Below are positions 547 to 10,526 of a DNA stretch of 10,526 nt, in pieces. The notes under the pieces are model-generated. The model made no database searches and was not told the DNA's origin. It saw only the letters and a list, made by a program, of their open reading frames with translations. The position numbers were made by a program, and so were the translations under genes. Source of the DNA: a virus (lineage: Duplodnaviria; Heunggongvirae; Uroviricota; Caudoviricetes); IMG/VR virus record IMGVR_UViG_2609459769_000020, one strand, 5' to 3'. Positions within the stretch are counted from its first letter, which is position 1, and each line of letters opens with the position of its first letter.

Positions 547-686
547 TAAATAGTCTCCTCTTCATGGCTGTTTGCATAAACGTAAATAAACGTCTGCCAT
601 GCAGGCTTATAACGGTTCAGAATACATTCCAGCGCACCGCCTTCATAAATACGCAGCGGCGTGAGAATATCATCCAGCACATTCAT
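546..686 (-). CDS. Small ORF (46 aa) bridging the gemA-like stop and the tail-fibre start; possibly a remnant 3' end of a baseplate/tail gene rather than an independent gene
   Basis: My translation: MNVLDDILTPLRIYEGGALECILNRYKPAWQTFIYVYANSHEEETI. Its ATG (686..684) overlaps the gemA-like stop and its TAA (548..546) overlaps the tail-fibre ATG (TAATG). No recognisable family. Confidence 0.25.
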   Translation of the reverse strand: MNVLDDILTPLRIYEGGALECILNRYKPAWQTFIYVYANSHEEETI

Positions 687-886
687 ATTCCGGTAACCGG
701 CTTCTGACGCACTTTAAAACCGCGTTTTTTGAAAACATCCAGCACGCGGGATAACTCATCCGGTGACATATCCCGGCAACTGGGTTTGCCGGTGGCTGCC
801 AGTAGTACGGATGTGTAGGTCTCATGGTCAAGCTGTAGATCGCGTTTTGCGACATGTATTAAGGTAATCAGGGAAGCGCGATTCAT
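683..886 (-). CDS. gemA: GemA-family (Mu gp16-like) protein, apparently truncated (67 aa)
   Basis: ORF-track protein MNRASLITLIHVAKRDLQLDHETYTSVLLAATGKPSCRDMSPDELSRVLDVFKKRGFKV... fits the GemA/DUF1018 N-terminal pattern (LIHVAKR.L.LD.ETY...TGK.S...MS..EL..VL..FK..GF) as I recall it. SD GGAGA lies upstream of the ATG at 886. I recall family members being considerably longer (over 100 aa); here the frame stops right after the conserved N-terminal block. Confidence 0.5.
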   Translation of the reverse strand: MNRASLITLIHVAKRDLQLDHETYTSVLLAATGKPSCRDMSPDELSRVLDVFKKRGFKVRQKPVTGI

Positions 887-950
887 TATCGTGTCTCCGT
901 AACAACAGGCGGCATGGCAACGCCGCCCGGATAAAACTAAAGGTATCGAT

Positions 951-1361
951 ATGAAAATAGATTACGATGAAGTATTAAGTATTCTCACAACTTTTCAGGA
1001 TGCTGAAACACCTTTCCTTACACTACAGGATCTGGGCATGGCTGAGGCAGAAGGAGAGGAAAAGGATAAAAAAGTTTTTCATCTTATGCTTCTCGCTGAT
1101 AATGGCTCAATTGTTAATGGTGATATGCAGTCAGAAACACCCAAATATATTGGTTTCTTTTTCCATTCTCTGGGCGTTGGTTTCAGAAACACGCCCATTA
1201 TGCTTACCCAGCAGGGGCATGATTTAGCTAACGCCCTGAGAAAAAAACCAATCCTTGAAAGAATCAAAAAGGAGTTTACAGACGCACCATTTGATCTAAT
1301 TAAAGAAGTTACCAAATCAATGTTAACCAGGTTCGTCAAAGAACGTATTGGGATTGACTGA
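951..1361 (+). CDS. Hypothetical protein (136 aa), opposite-strand insert; possibly DUF2513-like
   Basis: ORF-track ORF with AAAGG about 7 nt upstream of the ATG. Visibly more AT-rich than neighbouring phage genes and the only convincing plus-strand gene inside the minus-strand operon. The LTQQGHDLANALRKKPILERIKKEF segment faintly recalls small prophage-associated DUF2513 proteins; unverified. Confidence 0.5.
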   Translation: MKIDYDEVLSILTTFQDAETPFLTLQDLGMAEAEGEEKDKKVFHLMLLADNGSIVNGDMQSETPKYIGFFFHSLGVGFRNTPIMLTQQGHDLANALRKKPILERIKKEFTDAPFDLIKEVTKSMLTRFVKERIGID

Positions 1362-1631
1362 ACAACTTAATTCAGCCAGTAATCGCAGGGCGGCGACAGC
1401 CGCCTGCTTGTCACTTCTTTTAGCTATTTCCGCAAGAGTATGCACAATCCATAACGGACTTAACGCCACGGCTGAATCCAGAATCATGTCATCCATAATA
1501 ATTTCTGGCATATCCCGCTTGTCACATTCTTTATCCATAAAAGAAACGAATTTCTCTGCATCTTCCGGTTTCATGCCTCCGGCGATAAGGATTTTGCGAT
1601 ATTCATAAGACGATCTTAATTCAATACTCAT
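1323..1631 (-). CDS. Hypothetical protein (102 aa)
   Basis: ORF-track ORF with ATG at 1631 and SD AGGTGA upstream. Its 3' end overlaps the plus-strand gene by 39 nt. No recognisable motif. Confidence 0.45.
   Translation of the reverse strand: MSIELRSSYEYRKILIAGGMKPEDAEKFVSFMDKECDKRDMPEIIMDDMILDSAVALSPLWIVHTLAEIAKRSDKQAAVAALRLLAELSCSVNPNTFFDEPG
1385..1429 (+). terminator. Candidate intrinsic terminator for the plus-strand gene
   Basis: GCAGGGCGGC (1385..1394), loop GACA, GCCGCCTGC (1399..1407): a 9-bp GC-rich stem with one bulged G, followed by the T-rich stretch TTGTCACTTCTTTTAGCTATTT. It works only in plus orientation and lies inside the convergent minus-strand ORF 1323..1631. Confidence 0.25.
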
Positions 1632-1646
1632 TATTCACCTGCCTGC

Positions 1647-1997
1647 TTAATCTGTTTCCAGTGCTTTGCTACGGGCTATAGCCTCACATTCAAAAAATAC
1701 CGACTCCGGCACGCGCTCTTTTAATTCACGAACAAGGAAATCATTAACGCGTTCATGACGTCTTATATTTCTTTCCTTTTCCTCCTGGCGCAATACAGCA
1801 AGGCGGTATTCAACAGCCCGGCGTTGTTTCTGAAAGACAGCCAGTGCTTTTCTGGCAGCATTACGCCATGCATCATCGCCACATGGTGCGTATTCAAGCT
1901 GAAATTTAATCTCTTCAATAGTTTCTTTGATTTTTGCCAGCAAGCTAAGACAGTCGCTTATTGTCTCCAGCTTTTCATTATCAATATAACTTCTCAC
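1647..1997 (-). CDS. Hypothetical protein with predicted coiled-coil character (about 116 aa from revised start)
   Basis: The track ORF 1647..2039 starts at a GTG with a 46-nt overlap into the upstream gene. An in-frame GTG at 1997..1995 sits about 6 nt after a strong SD GGGAGGTGA and overlaps the upstream TGA, so I place the start there. Charged heptad-like sequence (KIKETIEEIKFQLEY...RLAVLRQEEKERNIRRHER). Confidence 0.5.
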   Translation of the reverse strand: MRSYIDNEKLETISDCLSLLAKIKETIEEIKFQLEYAPCGDDAWRNAARKALAVFQKQRRAVEYRLAVLRQEEKERNIRRHERVNDFLVRELKERVPESVFFECEAIARSKALETD

Positions 1998-2323
1998 GCA
2001 TTCACCTCCCGTAATTCCGGTAAAGCCGAAATATGACACCAGTGCGTCACCTGTCCGTCTTCATCTTCAAGGCAGGCTCCGGTTTCTTCATCAACAAAAA
2101 AGCCTTCATACCCCATATGGCCGATGCGCAGCTCCTGACGGTGACCATACTGAACAATCAGCACGACAGCCTCCATATCAGGTGGGAAAGCATCATTCAG
2201 TGAATGCCAGGGATAACCGCGTAAATCCCCGAAATAAACACCGGTCAGCGTTCCGCCACAGAGCGGCATTCCGGCGGCACACACAAGAGGTTCATCTGAT
2301 TCAACAAATAAGGTCGTTATCAT
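1994..2323 (-). CDS. Hypothetical protein (109 aa)
   Basis: ORF-track ORF; its ATG overlaps the upstream stop (ATGA coupling at 2320..2323). No recognisable motif. Confidence 0.5.
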   Translation of the reverse strand: MITTLFVESDEPLVCAAGMPLCGGTLTGVYFGDLRGYPWHSLNDAFPPDMEAVVLIVQYGHRQELRIGHMGYEGFFVDEETGACLEDEDGQVTHWCHISALPELREVNA

Positions 2324-2871
2324 GGCGTTAACTCCCGTAATACAGCGTCCTCGGCAGTCCGGCGACGGTAATAAACTGCGTGAGCAGAATGTTCAGATAT
2401 TCCAAACTTTTCGCCAATTTCCCGGAATGACAGACGGCGTGGGTAATCGGAATCACGCAGCGCACGTATAAGACGTACATCATCATCAGATATGCGCGTG
2501 CCGGGGCGTAACTCTCCGCACTTTGTTAATCCAGCACCAATCATTCCTGCCCGACATCTGACAGAATCTTTATTACGTCCGAGATATTCTCCCATTTGCT
2601 GGCAGGTCATTGTTCTGGCATTTTTTCGAATAAACTTATCTTCATCAGGTGTAAATCTTGGGTGTTTATATTTCAGTAACTCCGGGTATGAACTGCGCAA
2701 TACACCAGTCCGGTTATATACAGCCCAGACAGTTCTTTTTATTCTGGCAGCAATATCCTTAACCGGGGTGGATGAATAAAGCGCAATCAGTAGCGCATCT
2801 TCTTCAGGTGTCCACGCGCGGACATGAGCGGGTGTACGACCTTTTCGCCCCATGTGTTGTAAAATCATCAT
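2320..2871 (-). CDS. Putative DNA-binding regulator: two Myb/SANT-like repeats plus a C-terminal HTH resembling the Mor/C activator family
   Basis: ORF-track protein (183 aa). Repeats WTPEEDALLIALY...IAARIKRT and FTPDEDKFIRKN...MGEYLGRNKDSVRCR; C-terminal SDDDVRLIRALRDS...LSFREIGEKFGISEHSAHAVYYRRR. SD GGGGGTGA upstream of the ATG at 2871. Confidence 0.55.
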   Translation of the reverse strand: MMILQHMGRKGRTPAHVRAWTPEEDALLIALYSSTPVKDIAARIKRTVWAVYNRTGVLRSSYPELLKYKHPRFTPDEDKFIRKNARTMTCQQMGEYLGRNKDSVRCRAGMIGAGLTKCGELRPGTRISDDDVRLIRALRDSDYPRRLSFREIGEKFGISEHSAHAVYYRRRTAEDAVLRELTP

Positions 2872-2874
2872 ACA

Positions 2875-3390
2875 TCACCCCCTGACTCGCTTTTCGGCAG
2901 CATAAAACTCATCAGACAGAATTTCGGTCATTTTCCGTTTTGCGGAATCATCTTCGCACTGAAGATAAATCACATTGTCAACGCAGAACCAGTTCACGGG
3001 ACCATACAATATTGCTGAGAAGTCAATACCCAGCCAGAACAACAGGGCATCGGTTCTGGCATACGTGACGGGCGAATATTCACGCCACAGACTGTTCAGT
3101 TCATCAGAGGCAACACGCAGGGCTTTAGGGATACGTGATGTGCGCGGTGTGCAGCTCCAGCCATTCGACGCAGTCGGTTTTCGCCATAAGTCGCGATGAA
3201 AAGGATATTTGTCCTCCGTAAAACGCAGTCCCTTAAAACAAAAACCACTGATACTGAATTCAAATACCGACCGGCACGCAACATTCAGCACGGCCTCAAG
3301 GCGTTTCGCCTCATCTTTTACCGTCTGGCAGTCCTGCTGGTATTTTTGCCACGCAGCCAGCGCGGAAGGGTTTGATGTTTTAAAGAACAT
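2875..3390 (-). CDS. Hypothetical protein (171 aa)
   Basis: ORF-track ORF with SD GGAGGTG upstream; its ATG overlaps the upstream TAA (TAATG at 3390). No recognisable motif. Confidence 0.5.
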   Translation of the reverse strand: MFFKTSNPSALAAWQKYQQDCQTVKDEAKRLEAVLNVACRSVFEFSISGFCFKGLRFTEDKYPFHRDLWRKPTASNGWSCTPRTSRIPKALRVASDELNSLWREYSPVTYARTDALLFWLGIDFSAILYGPVNWFCVDNVIYLQCEDDSAKRKMTEILSDEFYAAEKRVRG

Positions 3391-3923
3391 TACGCCACCT
3401 CCGCAGATATCCCGGCAGGCGCTGCTGTCCGGTCAACAATCAGGTAGCGCAGAACACGCGCGGTGATATTCCAGCCGCTTAAACCGCAGATGATGACACC
3501 CAGGCGAATGTCGATATACGCCATCACAAACTGGGGCACGCCTTCTTTCATGGCCTGCTCATCAACTTCAGCCACCACATAAACGGTTTCACAGGTCAGA
3601 ACGCCCTGAGCAAATTCCCACGCCATCGACGGAATATCATGCCCCTCAATCCATGGCAGGGATTTTCTGAAGCTGCACCACTGAACATCATCAGCCGCAG
3701 ATTCCTGTCTGCATTTGCGACGAATCGGCTGCACCGGGCGGGAACGCGGAATATCATAAAAACCGTTACATTCCGTCAGCACCCCGGCATCAACCGCATC
3801 ACGCAGAAAATAAACCATGGAGGATGGCGGCATATTCATTTTTTCAGCCAGTACGCCGCAGGTCAGACGCCCGTAAATACTCAGCCAGTTTTTAACCCCT
3901 TCAAGCACTTTTGCATCAATCAT
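3390..3923 (-). CDS. Hypothetical protein (177 aa), possible N-terminal winged-helix DNA-binding domain
   Basis: ORF-track ORF with strong SD GGAGGAA upstream of the ATG at 3923. The N-terminal segment LAEKMNMPPSSMVYFLRDAVDAGVL is HTH-like; this is a weak call. Confidence 0.5.
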   Translation of the reverse strand: MIDAKVLEGVKNWLSIYGRLTCGVLAEKMNMPPSSMVYFLRDAVDAGVLTECNGFYDIPRSRPVQPIRRKCRQESAADDVQWCSFRKSLPWIEGHDIPSMAWEFAQGVLTCETVYVVAEVDEQAMKEGVPQFVMAYIDIRLGVIICGLSGWNITARVLRYLIVDRTAAPAGISAEVA

Positions 3924-3926
3924 GAA

Positions 3927-4469
3927 TTATTCCTCCGTCAGCGCCACATATTCAGAATGTTTAATTTCCTGGCATTCTTCAGGAATACATCCGTTTATTT
4001 CCCTGCCATAAGCGCCCACTTTAAACACCACGCACAGGGCATCACGGGAGAACGAAGGGGTCCACCAGGAGTCCGTGTTAAACATGGAGGGGATTCTCAT
4101 TACCCCCAGCTTTTCACAGAGCCAGACAAGGAAATCAGGACGCTTTCTTAACTCGCGTTCAGCGGCTTCAATCATTGCGGCAATCGCCGGTCCTTCAGGG
4201 CATGACTCATCAGGTCTGGCTATAAAGCACTGTCCGCCACCGATAAAAGCCACATCATCGCGCTTACGCCAGCCCGCAGGCAGAGCACCGGCAAAATAAA
4301 ACTCACTGATTCTGTCCATGGCGAACGGCTTTAAGCGCAATCCGGCAGCGCCTGTATTTTTCAGTAATGTCCGAAGAATACTGTTGCGTAGCGGTAAAAC
4401 AGCCTGTTGATATTTGGTGAAATATTTATTTGTCTGCACACGGTCTAATTTGAAATAAAAATATGCCAT
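3927..4469 (-). CDS. Hypothetical protein (180 aa)
   Basis: ORF-track ORF with SD AAGGAA upstream of the ATG at 4469. First gene after the 97-nt AT-rich gap downstream of gam. No recognisable motif. Confidence 0.5.
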   Translation of the reverse strand: MAYFYFKLDRVQTNKYFTKYQQAVLPLRNSILRTLLKNTGAAGLRLKPFAMDRISEFYFAGALPAGWRKRDDVAFIGGGQCFIARPDESCPEGPAIAAMIEAAERELRKRPDFLVWLCEKLGVMRIPSMFNTDSWWTPSFSRDALCVVFKVGAYGREINGCIPEECQEIKHSEYVALTEE

Positions 4470-4566
4470 ATTTCCGATTCCTTATTTTCAGCTTTCAGGC
4501 GCAAGCAGTCCCCTGACGCGAGCGCCATAATTAAAATGAAGTGATATTTAAATAATTAATGCGGTG

Positions 4567-5097
4567 TTATTTATTCAGTCCGGCATCCTGTTCAAAAGGC
4601 TCGACATAAAAACTTTCAGCGCCTTTATTCACCTTTATACCGGCAATGCCTTTCACCGCATCCGGCTCCGCCAGGACGGCTTCCTTGTTCACTTCCTCTT
4701 TCGTGCGGATGAATCGCTCAAGCCCCATACGGCGCAGCGTGTCAATCACACCTTCCACATCACGGCTGACGCTGCATGATGGCGTTCCCAGCCGCCATGA
4801 CACCGTTCCGGTGGTCAGATTGGCAGTTTTGGTTTTGCCGCCGTTCGTCAGCTCATCACGGTTGGTTTTACACCAGTCCTGAATCCCTTTAAAAAGCACT
4901 TTGATTTGCTTTTTAAGATTTTCAATCTGCGGCGTATAACGGGCGGTGATTTCTGCCACTTCATCATTCATCGCCGTTTCCAGGCGCAGCGCCTCTCGCT
5001 GAATATCGCCCAGGGTGCGGATATCGCGGCTGACTTCTTCGCGGGTCTGCGGTGCGGCCTCGGCTACAGCCTTTAATTTTGTAACGCGTTTTGCCAT
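4567..5097 (-). CDS. gam: Host-nuclease inhibitor protein Gam (Mu Gam family, Ku-like DNA-end binding)
   Basis: ORF-track protein (176 aa) MAKRVTKLKAVAEAAPQTREEVSRDIRTLGDIQREALRLETAMNDEVAEITARY...CKTNRDELTNGGKTKTANLTTGTVSWR...ERFIRTKEEVNKEAVLAEP...EPFEQDAG closely matches my recollection of Mu Gam in length and in the LQREA.RLE.EMND, NRDELTNGGK.KTANL, RFIRTK.E.NKEA and PFEQ.AG blocks. SD AAGGA upstream. Confidence 0.8.
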   Translation of the reverse strand: MAKRVTKLKAVAEAAPQTREEVSRDIRTLGDIQREALRLETAMNDEVAEITARYTPQIENLKKQIKVLFKGIQDWCKTNRDELTNGGKTKTANLTTGTVSWRLGTPSCSVSRDVEGVIDTLRRMGLERFIRTKEEVNKEAVLAEPDAVKGIAGIKVNKGAESFYVEPFEQDAGLNK

Positions 5098-5108
5098 TTT
5101 GTTTTTCC

Positions 5109-5402
5109 TTATTGCAATGTATCTGGTGCGTTCTGCAAGGAGCGGCGCTCAATGCTGCTTTTCACCCCCAGAGCCTGCATGGAACCCTGAAGTTCATCTG
5201 TCAGAAACTGAATAATTGTGGGGCTGTGATATTTAAGAATTTGCGCATAAACATCACATGGGCCTGTCGGTCTGTTCTCCGTATCACGTTCGATTTTTAC
5301 AGTGGCAGTAACCCCCTCCGTGATTTCCTGACTATCATTACCGGCTGGCTTTACTTCATGCATTACGTGGTTAAATTCAAAAATAACGCGTACTTTGCTC
5401 AT
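5109..5402 (-). CDS. Hypothetical small protein, paralog 2 of a tandem pair (97 aa from revised start)
   Basis: The track ORF 5109..5429 has an internal ATG at 5402 placed 4 nt after the upstream TAA; this gives MSKVRVIFEFNHVMHEVKPAGN..., which parallels the N-terminus of the upstream gene. The two 5' ends also align at the DNA level. Confidence 0.45.
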   Translation of the reverse strand: MSKVRVIFEFNHVMHEVKPAGNDSQEITEGVTATVKIERDTENRPTGPCDVYAQILKYHSPTIIQFLTDELQGSMQALGVKSSIERRSLQNAPDTLQ

Positions 5403-5406
5403 GGAA

Positions 5407-5679
5407 TTACCCCTGCTGATTAAATTCATTACCGTTAATAACCCCGGAAGCCATGCCCCTGTCTTTCATGAATGCACTGGCTTTCATTGCCACAAGCTCT
5501 GCGAAGTTTCTGCTTTCCGCGAGCATAACCACCCCAAAAATCATGGCGGGTCCATCACCTTTCTGCTTTATCCCGGTTGAACGTATGTCCAGACTTACCC
5601 CCATGCGCACTGTTCCATCAGCGTTTTTATGGATAACGTGCTCCTTATATTCGAAAATAATGTGTACGACTTTACTCAT
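5407..5679 (-). CDS. Hypothetical small protein, paralog 1 of a tandem pair (90 aa)
   Basis: ORF-track ORF starting MSKVVHIIFEYKEHVIHKNADG...; its ATG overlaps the upstream TGA (ATGA). Confidence 0.45.
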   Translation of the reverse strand: MSKVVHIIFEYKEHVIHKNADGTVRMGVSLDIRSTGIKQKGDGPAMIFGVVMLAESRNFAELVAMKASAFMKDRGMASGVINGNEFNQQG

Positions 5680-5957
5680 CCTCTGGTCCTCGTTCTGTTT
5701 GGATAACTGACCCGGCGTCTGACCTCACGGCAGAACCGAATCATGGCATTAAAGGCTTCTTCCTCCGTCACCGCTTCCGGTATCCCCGGAACCAGTAACT
5801 GCTCCTGTTCATCACGTCCATGACGCGCCATAACCTCAATCACATGCCGTACCGTGGCAGGCTTTCCGGCAACTATCGGCAATGCACCTTCCGGCAGGAC
5901 GTAACCAAACTCAATAAGACCACTCGACCACGCCCATGCAATGAGATTTTTTTTCAC
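5676..5957 (-). CDS. Hypothetical protein (93 aa, GTG start)
   Basis: ORF-track ORF. The start is GTG at 5957, with a strong SD GGGAGGTG about 6 nt upstream. Confidence 0.45.
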   Translation of the reverse strand: MKKNLIAWAWSSGLIEFGYVLPEGALPIVAGKPATVRHVIEVMARHGRDEQEQLLVPGIPEAVTEEEAFNAMIRFCREVRRRVSYPNRTRTRG

Positions 5958-5958
5958 C

Positions 5959-6213
5959 TCACACCTCCCAGTAAACCGTGCAGCCGCTGATGCGGGTGGC
6001 CTTCACACGGCGGCGCAGGCCGTTGGTCTGTATGGTGATTTCAATTTCACCGGTTCCCTGCACGTTGCCTACCGGCGGCGTGGTTTTCAGTGCAAAACGT
6101 TGCGGATAGCGCTTACTGCGTTCCAGTACCGCACCGGCAAGTTCGGTCAGACGGCGCGCGCTGTTCAGGGAGTCGAATAAATTCATTTTGTTACCGCAGG
6201 ATTGCATATTCAT
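5959..6213 (-). CDS. Hypothetical protein (about 84 aa; start uncertain)
   Basis: Track ORF 5959..6225. The first ATG has no SD, whereas AGGTG precedes the internal ATGs at codons 5 and 7, so the start is more likely 6213 or 6207. Confidence 0.35.
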   Translation of the reverse strand: MNMQSCGNKMNLFDSLNSARRLTELAGAVLERSKRYPQRFALKTTPPVGNVQGTGEIEITIQTNGLRRRVKATRISGCTVYWEV

Positions 6214-6225
6214 ATAACACCTCAT

Positions 6226-6447
6226 TTAGCTGACTTGTTTCGCACCAACAGAACGGCATATTCCGCTGTAAACTTCTGTCGCACCTTCGCGATCAAGTCC
6301 GGCAGATATCACCATTCGTGTGCGGTCATTAAATTCAAAAAGTAAATCGCCACATTCTTTATTTTCGGCCAGTGAAATCACCTTCACGTTATCGAAATTA
6401 ACCAGGTAAAAGCGTCCGTAAATATCAGGAATATTAAATACCGCCAT
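6226..6447 (-). CDS. Hypothetical small protein at the position of Mu kil (first gene after B); function not established
   Basis: Track ORF 6226..6453 begins at a GTG. An ATG at 6447 with SD AGGTG 7 nt upstream sits 2 nt after the B stop codon. The kil assignment is by position only. Confidence 0.4.
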   Translation of the reverse strand: MAVFNIPDIYGRFYLVNFDNVKVISLAENKECGDLLFEFNDRTRMVISAGLDREGATEVYSGICRSVGAKQVS

Positions 6448-6449
6448 AA

Positions 6450-7391
6450 TCACACCTGTGAGAGTAATTCAGGGTTGGTATAAACCTCTTTAAAGGCCGC
6501 ATTAATATGTTTTTCTGTCAGCGCCGCGCCTTCACCGCTGGCGGTGAGCCACGCCTGGTTAAGCGTATGTGTCAGAACGCGTAACGCTCCCGGCTTTTCA
6601 GCGATAGCCTGCATGACGGCCAGCTCGGCCTCACCACTGATCCCCCACGCCATGGCAATGGCCAGCACATCCGCCTTTTTGGCCTTGCGAAGTTGTTTTG
6701 TACGGGCAAGACGGCTGAACAGGCGCGATAAATCATCAAAGGCGCGGCGTCCACCTTTAAACAATCCGCGCGGGTTACCAATAAGCACCATCCCGATCCC
6801 CGTGGCGTCCTGAATTGCCCGGAGTTGCTCCAGACCGTCAATACCAAGATGATCCGCCTCATCCACAATCACCAGTCCACGCGTTCCCATCAGGCGACGG
6901 CGGATGGCGCGGGATAATGCCCCTTTGTTCGCGCGGGTGTAATCAATCCCCAGCGCATCGGCCAGCTCCAGCAGACACTCCGTGACGCTGGAGTGCGCGG
7001 GTGACAGGGTGATCATCCAGGTGTTTGGTTGCTCCTGGCAGTAATTACGGGCAGTGGCCGTTTTACCCACACCCGGTACGCCCACAATAACGTTAATACA
7101 GCCCATCAGGCGAACCGCCTGAAACAGTGCGCGCAGCTCCTGGACTGTCTGAGTTTCCACAAACTGCGGCGGTTCCGGCAGTGCGCTTTGTTTATTCCAG
7201 TTCTCATACCAGGAGCGCAGGGAAGCAGCCACAGCAGCGTTATCGCCTTTATATTTTCCCTTACGGAAAGCCGATAATGTGCCGTCGGAAATTCCCGCCT
7301 CTCTGGCGATGGCATACTGCGTCAGTACGCCGCCATCAATAAGTTCATCAATGGTCTTGATTACATCGTTAATATCGGTCATATTATTCAC
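6450..7391 (-). CDS. B: Mu B-like ATP-dependent target DNA activator (AAA+ transposition ATPase)
   Basis: ORF-track protein (313 aa). Walker A GVPGVGKT and Walker B LVIVDEADHL are present, and the N-terminal HTH-like segment and overall length match my recollection of Mu B (312 aa). The track start is GTG at 7391; an ATG at 7382 preceded by GAGG may be the true start. Confidence 0.85.
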   Translation of the reverse strand: MNNMTDINDVIKTIDELIDGGVLTQYAIAREAGISDGTLSAFRKGKYKGDNAAVAASLRSWYENWNKQSALPEPPQFVETQTVQELRALFQAVRLMGCINVIVGVPGVGKTATARNYCQEQPNTWMITLSPAHSSVTECLLELADALGIDYTRANKGALSRAIRRRLMGTRGLVIVDEADHLGIDGLEQLRAIQDATGIGMVLIGNPRGLFKGGRRAFDDLSRLFSRLARTKQLRKAKKADVLAIAMAWGISGEAELAVMQAIAEKPGALRVLTHTLNQAWLTASGEGAALTEKHINAAFKEVYTNPELLSQV

Positions 7392-7464
7392 CTCGCTTGA
7401 GACAGCATTCTCCGAGACTGAAACCTCAAATAACCTGAGTCACCCCTCGGGTTATTTTTTTATT

Positions 7465-9555
7465 TCAGGCCAGCGGATCACTTTCTTTTAATTTCGCTTC
7501 GAGCAGTTGCAATCCCCGCTGGAAATTACGCTCGTATTCTTCATCAGGTTCATCGTCAGCGACCGGTTGCTGAACGGTCACCGTATTACCCACAGGGCGG
7601 TATATGTTTTCCAGCCAGGGCTCCTGCGGCTTGTGCTCCAGCACGTTGACAACCTCATCCTCGGCATCACGGATTTTTTCCTCTGCGCGTTTACGCATGC
7701 CTTTAAGGCGCTGCTGCTGTTTGTAGTATTCCGCGCTGACAGGGAAGGCTTCGCGTTTATTGCCGTCCCATACCGCCTCGCAAATCACGCTGCCATCCGG
7801 GCGGCGCACGGTAATTCGTTCGGCATCATGAATGTCATAGCTGATAAGTACCTTACGGCCATGCTCGTCACGCAGCTCGGGCGCGTAGTAAATATTATTC
7901 AGCCAGCGTATTTCACAGCGTCTTACAGGGCGCTCCACCATCGGCCGGAACATATCCCGCAGTTCAACATCGGACAGCCATTCAATTTCCGTGTCCTCTT
8001 CCGCCAGGCGTTTTTTTCTGAACTCCGCCGGGCTGTAATGTTTACCGTTCGGCTTCATGGGTAATTCATCGTGCGGCCGGTTGTTGTACCACTCAACACC
8101 GTCACGAATGGCATCAATCAGTTCAGACCAGGACGGTAAATCACGCATCGCTGACTGCTGCCGGGCGTTCAGCCGTTTGCCCTGTTGCAGGGCACTGAAT
8201 GCCGAGCGTAAATCGCGGTTGGTTTTACGTAACGTCTCGCGATCTGCTCCTTTCCCGAAATAGGTGCGGTATTTACGGGCTATGCGCATCGGTAATGTGC
8301 GGTTAAGCCGTTCGATAATGCCCCGTCCCTGCGGATTACCGGCAATCCCTGTCGGGTGATTAATCCCCAGTCGTGGCAGTATCCCCACAATCTCCTTATC
8401 CAGGACGTCGGCGGTTTCCCCGGAGCCATTATCCGAGTAATACAGAAACGGTTTGCCATGATGGCGAATACCGTGCTGTATGGCACCGGCTACGGCGAAA
8501 ACATTTTCAGCCAGGTCAAGACTCCAGCCCACCACAAAGCGCGTGCCACCGTCGATAACAAAGGTCACTTCCGGTGCGAATGGCCGCCCGTGAACCGGGT
8601 GCGCGCATTTCAGCTTCATGCCGTGACCGTCACCAATCCAGACATAATTCACCGGCATTCTGGACCAGTCGCGGCGCGTGAATCCCTCAAGCTGACGGTA
8701 TTCACTGCCAGTTACCCGGCCTTTTTGTTTCACCACTTCCGGCAGTTTCTTCATTGCGCGGCGAATGGTGTCATAAGAGGGCATGATATCGAGCATATAA
8801 GGCTCATCAGCGTGCCGGTGCTGCCATTCAGCAACAAAATCCTCGTAAGCCTCGGTCATTGGTCGGCCGTTTGACTGGCGATACTGCGCCAGAAATTCGG
8901 GCAGCCAGTTAATATCTTCGGCTTTTATTTCCTGGCGTTTACCCGGTGCCAGTAAAAGCAGGCGTTCAGCGGCGTTCTGTGCCTTGTTAAAGGCCGCAAT
9001 CCAGCGTTTCAGCGTGATTTCACTCAACGCGCGGCTGTTTCCCTTTTTGGCGTTCGCCGTCTCAACCATTGCCACAATGCGCTCGTCCAGTTGTGATCGT
9101 GCCAGGCTGTTAACGAGGAACCGGATAGCCTTAGCGCAACTAAAGCCGGGTTGTTGCGCGATTTTCAGCACCTCGCTGACGATCGCTATTCGTGCCTCTG
9201 CCACTTTACGTTGGTTTTCAGTCAGGGCATTGAGGCGTTCGACCATCAGTTGGGGTGATCCGCGATATGCCTCCACCGCATCAACCACGGCAGGTGAGCG
9301 TCTGGCCTTTGTCACCACCGGAGCCGGTGATTCATCGGCTTTTTGCGTCATCAGTTGCAGGGCGTAGCGTTCACGTAATGCCTGCTGCGTCACTTCAGGT
9401 AAACAGTCGATGCTGTATTCAGTTGCTTTAGAGCCTGAGCGACGACGGGAACAACAGCTTTTCCCTTGTACGTAACGTTGTAATGCCTGGCGAATACCTT
9501 TTGTTGTAGCAGGCATTCCGGGCGCGCCAATCAGTTCTTTTGCAATGACATACAT
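7465..9555 (-). CDS. A: Mu A-like DDE transposase
   Basis: ORF-track protein (696 aa). Candidate catalytic DDE triad in the segments WIGDGHG, YYSDNGSG and GRGIIERLNRTL, with spacing consistent with the Mu A/retroviral-integrase fold. Position is immediately downstream of ner (the ner stop and A start are 1 nt apart). Confidence 0.85.
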   Translation of the reverse strand: MYVIAKELIGAPGMPATTKGIRQALQRYVQGKSCCSRRRSGSKATEYSIDCLPEVTQQALRERYALQLMTQKADESPAPVVTKARRSPAVVDAVEAYRGSPQLMVERLNALTENQRKVAEARIAIVSEVLKIAQQPGFSCAKAIRFLVNSLARSQLDERIVAMVETANAKKGNSRALSEITLKRWIAAFNKAQNAAERLLLLAPGKRQEIKAEDINWLPEFLAQYRQSNGRPMTEAYEDFVAEWQHRHADEPYMLDIMPSYDTIRRAMKKLPEVVKQKGRVTGSEYRQLEGFTRRDWSRMPVNYVWIGDGHGMKLKCAHPVHGRPFAPEVTFVIDGGTRFVVGWSLDLAENVFAVAGAIQHGIRHHGKPFLYYSDNGSGETADVLDKEIVGILPRLGINHPTGIAGNPQGRGIIERLNRTLPMRIARKYRTYFGKGADRETLRKTNRDLRSAFSALQQGKRLNARQQSAMRDLPSWSELIDAIRDGVEWYNNRPHDELPMKPNGKHYSPAEFRKKRLAEEDTEIEWLSDVELRDMFRPMVERPVRRCEIRWLNNIYYAPELRDEHGRKVLISYDIHDAERITVRRPDGSVICEAVWDGNKREAFPVSAEYYKQQQRLKGMRKRAEEKIRDAEDEVVNVLEHKPQEPWLENIYRPVGNTVTVQQPVADDEPDEEYERNFQRGLQLLEAKLKESDPLA

Positions 9556-9556
9556 A

Positions 9557-9805
9557 TCATGACGCCTTTCTCATATAGCTCTTAACCTGGTATCGACTGG
9601 GCCAGATTTCTTCAGGTGATACCCCAAGAGCATCAGCAATTATTTGCTGATACGGTCGGCAAGGAGTACGTAATACGCTTTTCAGCGAATCCCTGCTGTA
9701 ACCAGCCTTTAAAGATAAAGAGCGCAGTGATAAGCCAGCCATGTGTAAGCGCGCCTTGATGATTTCAGGCGGCCAATCGTGATCTGAAACTTCTCTTCTA
9801 CTCAT
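9557..9805 (-). CDS. ner: Ner-like DNA-binding protein (Mu Ner / E. coli Nlp family)
   Basis: ORF-track protein (82 aa) ...DWPPEIIKARLHMAGLSLRSLS...QQIIADALGVSPEEIWPSRYQ... matches the recalled Ner/Nlp pattern, including the C-terminal IWPSRY block. SD GAGGAAG upstream of the ATG at 9805. Confidence 0.8.
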   Translation of the reverse strand: MSRREVSDHDWPPEIIKARLHMAGLSLRSLSLKAGYSRDSLKSVLRTPCRPYQQIIADALGVSPEEIWPSRYQVKSYMRKAS

Positions 9806-9995
9806 ACTTCCTCTATTCTAAAAAGTTACCCGCGCGGATATTCGTGCGGATATCTGTACGGGTAAATAATGCATCACCAAAAATACCAAATCAAGGTATT
9901 TTTGGTATTTTGGCTAATTTTTGCTTTTATCCTTATTTTTCAATTGGATAAATAGAAAGAAACCTTTCCTTAGAAAAGCACCAAGAGGTATCTTT
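9806..9995. promoter_or_regulatory. Divergent repressor/ner control region (operators and promoters for early and repressor transcripts)
   Basis: A 190-nt AT-rich gap between divergent regulator genes. It contains a tandem 8-bp direct repeat GCGGATAT (9834..9841 and 9846..9853) and a perfect 12-bp inverted repeat plus a further half-site copy. A TAGAAT -10-like hexamer sits on the minus strand just upstream of the ner SD. Exact promoters were not resolved. Confidence 0.6.
9876..9906. repeat. Perfect 12-bp inverted repeat ACCAAAAATACC-N7-GGTATTTTTGGT, candidate operator
   Basis: Read directly: 9876..9887 and 9895..9906 are exact reverse complements with a 7-nt spacer. A third direct copy GGTATTTTGG overlaps at 9904..9913. 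Confidence 0.6.
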
Positions 9996-10526
9996 ATGTC
10001 GCAGGGAAAAGAACCTGTTATTGAACGTATTGGAATGCTTACAAAGCGCTACCCTTCAAGAAGTGCAGCTGCCAGAGCGTGGGGAATCAATATCAACACA
10101 TTAAACAGCTATTTCAAGGGAGGACAAACACAACCAGCCCCCAGAGAAAGTATCCTTATACGAATTTCTGAAAGTGAAGGCGTTAGTCTTGAGTGGCTTA
10201 AAGAGGGCAAGGGTGAATTACCAAACGATATTGGTATTTATGGTAATTTTGGTTGTTCTGGTGATAAGGGAGATCAGCTTACACAGATGCTTTCATTCCT
10301 TACGAAAGACGAACGAGAACAGTTAACCAATCTCCTTGCTCGCAAAGGTGTGGAGACGGTTCTGACACTGCTGAATAAAGAAAACCAGGATTTATTACAA
10401 CTAGAAGGCAGGAAGCGCCTGGCTGCGTTGATGATTGTAGATATGCCAGACGATTGCGTCAGAGAGATTTTGGAAAAAACCGAGACAAGTAGGCAATCAA
10501 ATCCGGTAGAATCTAAAGCGGGTTAG
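9996..10526 (+). CDS. Prophage repressor (functional and positional analogue of the Mu/D108 c repressor)
   Basis: The track ORF 9921..10526 has an internal ATG at 9996 preceded by SD AAGAGG, which I take as the start (176 aa, MSQGKEP...). N-terminal HTH-like segment with GVSLEWLKEGKGE, typical of phage repressors; the C-terminal helical region loosely resembles the Mu c C-terminus. Divergent from ner. The TAG stop falls on the last three bases of the window. Confidence 0.7.
   Translation: MSQGKEPVIERIGMLTKRYPSRSAAARAWGININTLNSYFKGGQTQPAPRESILIRISESEGVSLEWLKEGKGELPNDIGIYGNFGCSGDKGDQLTQMLSFLTKDEREQLTNLLARKGVETVLTLLNKENQDLLQLEGRKRLAALMIVDMPDDCVREILEKTETSRQSNPVESKAG

Follow-up and report, generated by a model that had tools for sequence, protein, structure and literature searches.

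The gam–gemA interval and its gene row

The subject of this analysis is a 10,526-nucleotide stretch of viral DNA (IMG/VR virus record IMGVR_UViG_2609459769_000020), which as a whole is called the window here, and in particular the genes lying between gam and gemA in it. The map of the window, built from six-frame open reading frames (ORFs) and from Pfam and PHROG scans, places a row of seven minus-strand genes, P1 to P7, at 1323–4469 (ORF map and NCBI annotation). The upstream boundary of the row is gam (4567–5097, minus strand), a host-nuclease inhibitor gene of the Mu Gam family (Pfam Phage_Mu_Gam, E 7e-42; PHROG 491), and the downstream boundary is a truncated gemA of 67 amino acids (aa) (683–886, minus strand; Pfam GemA, E 7e-11). 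With a probability of roughly 0.8, this stretch, which runs from gam to gemA, makes up the distal half of a Mu-like early (Pe) operon, that is, the semi-essential early (SEE) accessory region, in which a conserved backbone and exchangeable cassettes would supply dispensable early functions. The gene order of the window, c/ner/A/B followed further on by gam and then gemA, is that of Mu, and together with the orthologues of Mu gp11 and gp12 described below it bears out the earlier note on this DNA, which had placed the genes in the Mu semi-essential early region.

Counted from gam, the row is composed of P1 (3927–4469, 180 aa), P2 (3390–3923, 177 aa), P3 (2875–3390, 171 aa), P4 (2320–2871, 183 aa), P5 (1994–2323, 109 aa), P6 (1647–1997, 116 aa, with a GTG start) and P7 (1323–1631, 102 aa), all of them supported both as ORFs and by the NCBI annotation of the prophage of Escherichia coli JKHS016, in which the corresponding segment is 100% identical and the same ORFs are called. 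The earlier note had counted seven genes at 1647–4469. Seven minus-strand genes do lie between gam and gemA, but that span holds six of them, the seventh being P7, and the interval also contains an eighth gene on the opposite strand, namely the DUF2513 gene (951–1361, plus strand, 136 aa; an ORF with a RefSeq name). The start of P6 has likewise been moved, from the first in-frame start at 2039 to the GTG at 1997, which is the start in the NCBI annotation and is preferred because the alignment of the protein with its family, PHROG 6158, begins at residue 15 of the longer ORF.

As for the junctions, P1 and P2 are separated by a 3-nt spacer and so are P3 and P4; P2 and P3 overlap by 1 nt in a TAATG, P4 and P5 overlap in an ATGA, P5 and P6 overlap in a GTGA (the GTG start of P6 lying over the stop codon of P5), and P6 and P7 are separated by a 15-nt spacer. 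A purine-rich Shine-Dalgarno sequence precedes the start of every gene from P1 to P7, so the tight coupling of these same-strand genes, as noticed earlier, is confirmed. Within the row, promoter-like sites (2 against 7.0 expected from shuffled sequence) and terminator-like sites (5 against 4.3 expected from shuffled sequence) show no excess. Taken together, the overlaps, the Shine-Dalgarno sequences and this lack of excess fit a single polycistronic unit. All seven ORFs are intact, and each of the seven proteins is assigned to an existing PHROG family of unknown function, that of P4 bearing the label given below.

Conserved backbone and exchangeable cassettes

A Gam query retrieved 80 IMG/VR loci, onto which the window proteins were mapped, and the loci whose Gam is at least 91% identical were taken as the close lineage; it comprises 41 loci, 24 of which span the whole distance from gam to gemA. 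P2, P3 and P4 are present in all close loci that extend that far. The P1 slot is found in three states in the close loci (present, replaced by an allele of 24–26% identity, or absent), with flanks of more than 90% identity on either side of it. P5, P6, P7 and the DUF2513 gene form a mosaic, with 10 arrangements among the 24 gam-to-gemA loci; in relatives of the type of locus L016, for example, a gp13-like gene, a gp14-like gene and a different antisense ORF replace P6–P7–DUF2513. That is to say, the region consists of a conserved backbone (P2, P3 and P4) and exchangeable cassettes (P1, P5, P6, P7 and the DUF2513 gene). The SEE region has been described as long, poorly conserved and made up of genes for small uncharacterised proteins (PMC8705779), and a backbone with mobile cassettes matches this published description. 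In distant Mu-like phages, whose Gam is about 54% identical, gam and gemA lie between 374 bp and 4.7 kb apart, the ORFs in this interval are unrelated, and P1 to P7 are not detectable there.

Among the closest known counterparts is the SEE region of phage Mu itself (AF083977), where gp11 to gp15 lie between gam and gemA, at the same position and on the same strand of the early operon as the row described here. Mu and the window have the same gap of 97–98 nt after gam; in both, gp11 is followed by gp12, with stop and start codons overlapping by one base (the TAATG of the window), and gp11 to gp15 of Mu are likewise uncharacterised. However, Mu has no P1, P4, P5, P6, P7 or antisense DUF2513 gene, whereas the window has no gp13 (zinc ribbon), gp14 or gp15 of Mu (a BLASTP comparison of P1 to P7 gave no significant match to them), and the gam–gemA interval is about 3.7 kb in the window against about 1.9 kb in Mu.

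Shigella phage SfMu (NC_027382) resembles the window in having a DUF5420-family gene directly after gam, the product of which is 41% identical to P1, an orthologue of Mu gp11 (66%), a homologue of P7 called gp14 in SfMu (36%), and an antisense gene just before gemA. Unlike the window, SfMu lacks P4, P5 and P6, has gp13 and a Mu-gp14-like gene, and carries a gp12-like ORF that is frameshifted in the deposited sequence. This ORF, at 3443–3958 of NC_027382 (locus L083), is unannotated and is interrupted by stops after about 25 codons, owing either to a frameshift or to an error in sequencing; provided that the deposited sequence is correct, the ORF is disrupted in a viable phage, so that gp12 would be dispensable.

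With regard to distribution, the segment 1300–4600 of the window is found in 233 of 5,426 complete E. coli genomes, and the exact P1 to P7 proteins occur on 500 to more than 1,000 public contigs, where all except P4 are labelled hypothetical. The same segment is also carried by Mu-like elements inserted in two Shiga toxin (Stx)-converting phage records. These records, LC727881.1 and LC727895.1, contain close copies of the element that are annotated as insertions in Stx2c- and Stx1a-converting lambdoid prophages, an arrangement which is that of a transposable phage nested inside another prophage.

Encoded proteins and surrounding prophage

Among the backbone proteins, P2 is identified by sequence comparison as the orthologue of phage Mu gp11, with 67% identity over the full length (E 1e-81). 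It carries the Pfam domain Gp11_C (PF25754) at 136.3 bits against a gathering score of 27, with the whole 78-position profile covered, and its family includes more than 220 clusters in E. coli and Salmonella, whose labels are all hypothetical or "Uncharacterized protein 11". An N-terminal winged helix, and with it DNA binding, may be read from the sequence of P2. P3, in turn, is assigned as the orthologue of Mu gp12 (52% identity, E 5e-64) and belongs to PHROG 2314. A HMMER search of 1.84 billion representatives found 68 representative clusters for P3 at E ≤ 1e-3, mostly full-length and of 23–33% identity, and a Pfam scan of the aligned members of the gp12 family (59 rows including the query) gave no match. 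A literature search on DUF5420, Mu gp11 and Mu gp12 found nothing on these genes, one of its queries being swamped by the mouse Mup genes.

P4 is a predicted DNA-binding protein with three tandem SANT/Myb-like helix-turn-helix (HTH) repeats. The three repeats align with one another and have the motif [WFI][TS]P[ED]ED in common, and the protein is basic (isoelectric point, pI, 10). The Pfam match to Myb_DNA-binding is marginal, at 25.2 bits against a gathering score of 24.4 with no single stretch passing alone, and matches to HTH_AsnC-type and HTH_10 lie below threshold. P4 belongs to PHROG 323, "transcriptional regulator, D5-like" (E 5.8e-52), and its public names are SANT/Myb-like (RefSeq) or AsnC-family DNA-binding protein. 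It occurs as two alleles among the relatives, of 95–100% or 71–75% identity, and a homologue of 35% identity is found among the early-operon accessory genes of the P2-like Citrobacter phage Shae_phiSM.

P1, the first gene after gam, encodes what by its relatives is a divergent DUF5420-like protein. It is placed in PHROG 2260 (E 2e-73), and a Pfam scan at E ≤ 0.1 gave no match to it, DUF5420 (PF17457, gathering score 26 bits) included. The SfMu protein that is 41% identical to P1, which is numbered gp11 in that phage, carries the RefSeq name "DUF5420 family protein"; the Salmonella protein P0032, 37–39% identical to P1, bears the name DUF5420 in its source and has a DUF5420 score of 15 bits; and the allele in the P1 slot of locus L016 reaches 50.3 bits with DUF5420, against the gathering score of 26. 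The membership of P1 in DUF5420 would run through this transitive homology only. The AlphaFold2 model of P1 is a confident one, with a predicted local distance difference test (pLDDT) value of 88.6 and a predicted template modelling (pTM) score of 0.80. Its matches in BFVD are three phage proteins, uncharacterised and equal to P1 in size, with template modelling (TM) scores of 0.68–0.74. No known inhibitor was matched by this model, and the predicted fold appears to have no solved relative.

In addition, P1 and gp12 (P3) are probably distant paralogues, although this is not proven. Direct BLASTP of P1 against gp12 was not significant. A shallow-profile hhalign comparison of the two families gave E 0.032, and one with deeper profiles gave a score of 23.8 (P 0.0057), which was not reached in any of 150 column shuffles (maximum 20.8). 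Moreover, both families show the motif [FY][FY]K in their N-terminal part and the motif EI..SE[FY].A in their C-terminal part.

For P5, P6 and P7, no informative family was found in Pfam, NCBIfam, PHROG or the PDB. P5 (PHROG 6925) is acidic, with a pI of 4.3 and a net charge of about −14, and can be regarded as a narrowly distributed orphan: its homologues are at least 76% identical, except for one E. coli protein of about 51–53%, their named hosts are E. coli and Salmonella, and among phage records it is found in Mu-like inserts only. Its Pfam scan had no match even at E ≤ 10, a level at which the UniRef label "DUF551" for this protein is also unsupported, and its AlphaFold2 model is of low confidence (pLDDT 45). 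P6 (PHROG 6158) is predicted to be helical or coiled-coil-like, and in the PDB it has compositional matches to designed coiled coils only. Aeromonas phage AsXd-1 and the lambdoid Escherichia phage Fraca have homologues of 39–41% identity, the one in Fraca being flanked by an ORF6N protein and by xis/int, so that P6 is, as its relatives indicate, a mobile accessory gene. P7 (PHROG 1988) is acidic as well (pI 4.7) and is 36% identical to SfMu gp14 (E 8e-14), many of its relatives matching over the first 75% only. P7 has no Pfam or PDB match; the public name "predicted thioredoxin/glutaredoxin" is without Pfam support, and there is no CxxC motif in the sequence.

The DUF2513 gene is convergent with P7 and overlaps its 3′ end by 39 nt. 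The Pfam match (E 6.6e-5) is below the gathering score, RefSeq calls the product a DUF2513 domain protein, and no PADLOC match was found for it. The gene is present in some relatives only, being missing, for instance, from loci L036 and L029, and the slot before gemA holds unrelated antisense genes elsewhere, such as SfMu gp16 (88 aa) and an ORF at 9128–9367 of L016 (79 aa). It looks like a variable moron outside the coupled operon, and genes in this moron slot could be expressed in the lysogen. Between the start of the DUF2513 gene and the Shine-Dalgarno sequence of gemA there is a GC-rich hairpin at 908–930, with a 10-bp stem and a 4-nt loop followed by UGUUGUU on the minus strand, which could be an attenuator or a bidirectional terminator ending the accessory segment; an Rfam scan of the whole window returned no RNA family.

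On the other side of gam, the ORF map with Pfam and PHROG scans shows a repressor-like gene (9921–10526, plus strand) and, on the minus strand, ner (9557–9805), the MuA transposase gene (7465–9555) and MuB (6450–7391). From MuB to gam, the ORF map has five small coupled ORFs of 73–97 aa (5109–6453, minus strand). One of these, at 5959–6213, encodes a weakly Kil-like product with 33% identity across 39 aa. Homologues of another, at 5676–5957, lie directly downstream of gam in distant Mu-like phages, which indicates that gene positions are shuffled in this part of the operon.

The window is assigned to an E. coli Mu-like prophage of a common type, and its positions 690–10526 are 99.9% identical, by sequence alignment, to the prophage of JKHS016. 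Compared with this intact copy, the prophage of the window has an internal deletion of about 14.7 kb. Positions 1–704 match YmfQ-like baseplate and tail-fibre genes that lie 14.7 kb further along the JKHS016 prophage, and the alignment of the gemA side begins at 690, so that the two alignments overlap by 15 bp (690–704); this overlap at the deletion junction resembles microhomology. It is by this deletion, with its junction at 690–704, that gemA has been cut to 67 aa. The deletion also takes out mor, C and the lysis, head and tail genes, and because of their loss this prophage copy is defective. The junction does not occur in any of the 5,426 complete E. coli genomes.

Possible functions of the region

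If the stretch is the distal part of a Mu-like early operon, ner, A, B, gam and P1 to P7 would be carried on one message once the repressor has been inactivated, and P1 to P7 would be translated by coupling. The cassettes P1, P5, P6, P7 and DUF2513 are swapped by recombination among related prophages, P4 and P6 at least being shared with unrelated temperate phages. The functions would be dispensable, because close relatives can lack the cassettes and the deposited SfMu genome has a disrupted gp12-like ORF, and they would act on host processes or phage DNA transactions in the first minutes of lytic development. The backbone would most likely act on DNA, either as a regulator or as an aid to transposition and replication, while the exchangeable small proteins would most likely be stoichiometric binders of host proteins.

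Several points weigh against this reading. The prophage is defective through the 14.7-kb deletion, and in this particular genome there may never be a productive lytic cycle for the genes to act in; the division into backbone and cassettes is based on 41 close loci of one lineage; the roles suggested for all seven proteins are drawn from their context; co-transcription from Pe is an assumption taken over from Mu; and a profile search of PDB sequences with the gp11 family gave no support for DNA binding by P2.

As for what the genes do within such a region, a tentative possibility is that the backbone (the gp11-like and gp12-like proteins and P4) binds DNA or the transpososome or replisome, and either enhances replicative transposition or tunes early-to-middle transcription, in the manner of the classical "arm" phenotype, which maps to the SEE region of Mu. 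Deletions in that region lower replication (arm) without abolishing growth. In agreement with such a role, the backbone is always present and co-linear with A, B and gam, the conservation of gp11 and gp12 extends from the prophage of the window to Mu, and that of gp11 to SfMu as well, and P4 is a basic multi-HTH protein. However, none of the backbone proteins has homology to any replication or transposition factor, P4 is not generally required, since Mu and SfMu do without it, the gp12-like ORF of SfMu appears disrupted, and the arm phenotype is not assigned to these genes in the literature that was found.

The earlier note had regarded the region as the most likely place for an undescribed anti-restriction or anti-defence module, and had stated that none of the genes except a regulator-like one could be placed in a characterised family. 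The functions are indeed uncharacterised, but P2 and P3 are now placed as orthologues of Mu gp11 and gp12 and P1 as DUF5420-like, and no defence or anti-defence family was matched. The outcome that would have spoken against such a module, namely that all seven proteins are Mu housekeeping proteins with established roles, is not what was found either: P2 and P3 alone match Mu, and neither has an established role. In its present form the proposal is that at least one of the exchangeable genes P1, P5, P6 and P7 inhibits a host immune system and is expressed early with Gam, and this is unlikely. In its favour, the genes follow gam immediately on its downstream side, and Mu-type Gam interacts with the RecBCD/Gabija axis, blocking RecBCD and licensing Gabija (PMC12407980). 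The presence, absence and replacement by 24–26% identical alleles between flanks of more than 90% identity would also suit it, as would the small and acidic nature of P5 and P7, the occurrence of P6 in the accessory regions of unrelated phages, and a host-directed precedent in the SEE region of Mu, gnarl2, which is Mup07 (PMC12373910).

On the other hand, the searches for known inhibitors or defence-related families returned no informative match. The NCBIfam scan of P1 to P7 gave nothing, and Pfam gave only Gp11_C and the HTH/Myb domains; the comparison with PADLOC-DB at E ≤ 0.1 had no match besides a meaningless 10-bit one to P7; and PDB searches with the single sequences of P1 to P7 and with the gp12 and gp11 family profiles produced nothing meaningful, and for P1 to P7 no solved anti-defence protein (e.g., Ocr, ArdA, Acb, Tad, Gad or Acr). 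Pfam, NCBIfam, PHROG and the PDB were thus uninformative on this question, no dedicated anti-defence hidden Markov model search having been made, and a literature search on anti-defence in transposable phages yielded nothing on these genes. The model of P5 is of low confidence, and morons for superinfection exclusion, host take-over or regulation would be expected to vary just as much. Moreover, the sole SEE precedent found, gnarl2, acts on the O-antigen and not on intracellular defence.

It is also rather improbable that the small proteins serve host take-over or superinfection exclusion apart from immunity, by binding envelope, division or metabolic proteins as Kil or gnarl2 do. Kil, the division inhibitor of Mu, and Mup07/gnarl2, which affects the O-antigen, are encoded in the same segment of the Mu operon (PMC12373910 for gnarl2), and the genes considered here are small, variable and without a recognisable catalytic domain. 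In the accessory-gene screen of Silas et al., Mu E6/Mup07, that is, gnarl2, alters the O-antigen and makes wild E. coli more sensitive to phage T5 (PMC12373910), and the regions screened there resemble the present one in consisting of fast-changing small early genes, of unknown function, of temperate enterobacterial phages. However, gnarl2 lies upstream of gam in Mu and has no homologue in the window: the five ORFs of 5109–6453 gave no match when compared with Mu E6/Mup07 (gnarl2). P1 to P7 have no homology to Kil or gnarl2, nor do they have obvious hydrophobic stretches or signal peptides, the grand average of hydropathy (GRAVY) ranging from −0.66 to +0.14. In the available part of the supplements of Silas et al. 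(PMC12373910), only Mup07 comes from Mu, and none of P1 to P7 was found.

A more far-reaching version, which is still harder to believe, would make the gam-adjacent cassettes (P1, P5, P6 and P7) an anti-defence hot spot with new inhibitors and would in addition unite P1 and gp12 in an unrecognised superfamily with a fold unseen in solved structures. Finally, it is very improbable that the genes are decaying, functionless ORFs of a defective prophage, for which the loss of 14.7 kb (mor, C, and the lysis, head and tail genes) and the truncated gemA might speak, given that the seven ORFs are intact and identical to those of the undeleted JKHS016 prophage and tightly coupled with Shine-Dalgarno sequences, that homologues of P1, P2 and P7 exist in viable phages (SfMu and Yersinia Mu-like phages), and that the conservation in 233 complete genomes largely refutes such decay.

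The SEE accessory region of a Mu-like early operon is a kind of region that is already known, and the genes here are an ordinary, widespread set of hypothetical prophage genes. What is new is modest, and consists of the division into backbone and cassettes, the placing of P1 in or near DUF5420, its probable paralogy with gp12, and its predicted fold, which would lack a solved relative. Few parts of a classic model phage are understood as poorly as the Mu-like SEE region, and the division into backbone and cassettes provides a short ranked list of candidates, P1, P5, P6 and P7, for trial against defence systems. If one of them were an immune inhibitor, it would represent a new family, and the rule that anti-defence genes cluster together would extend to transposable phages.

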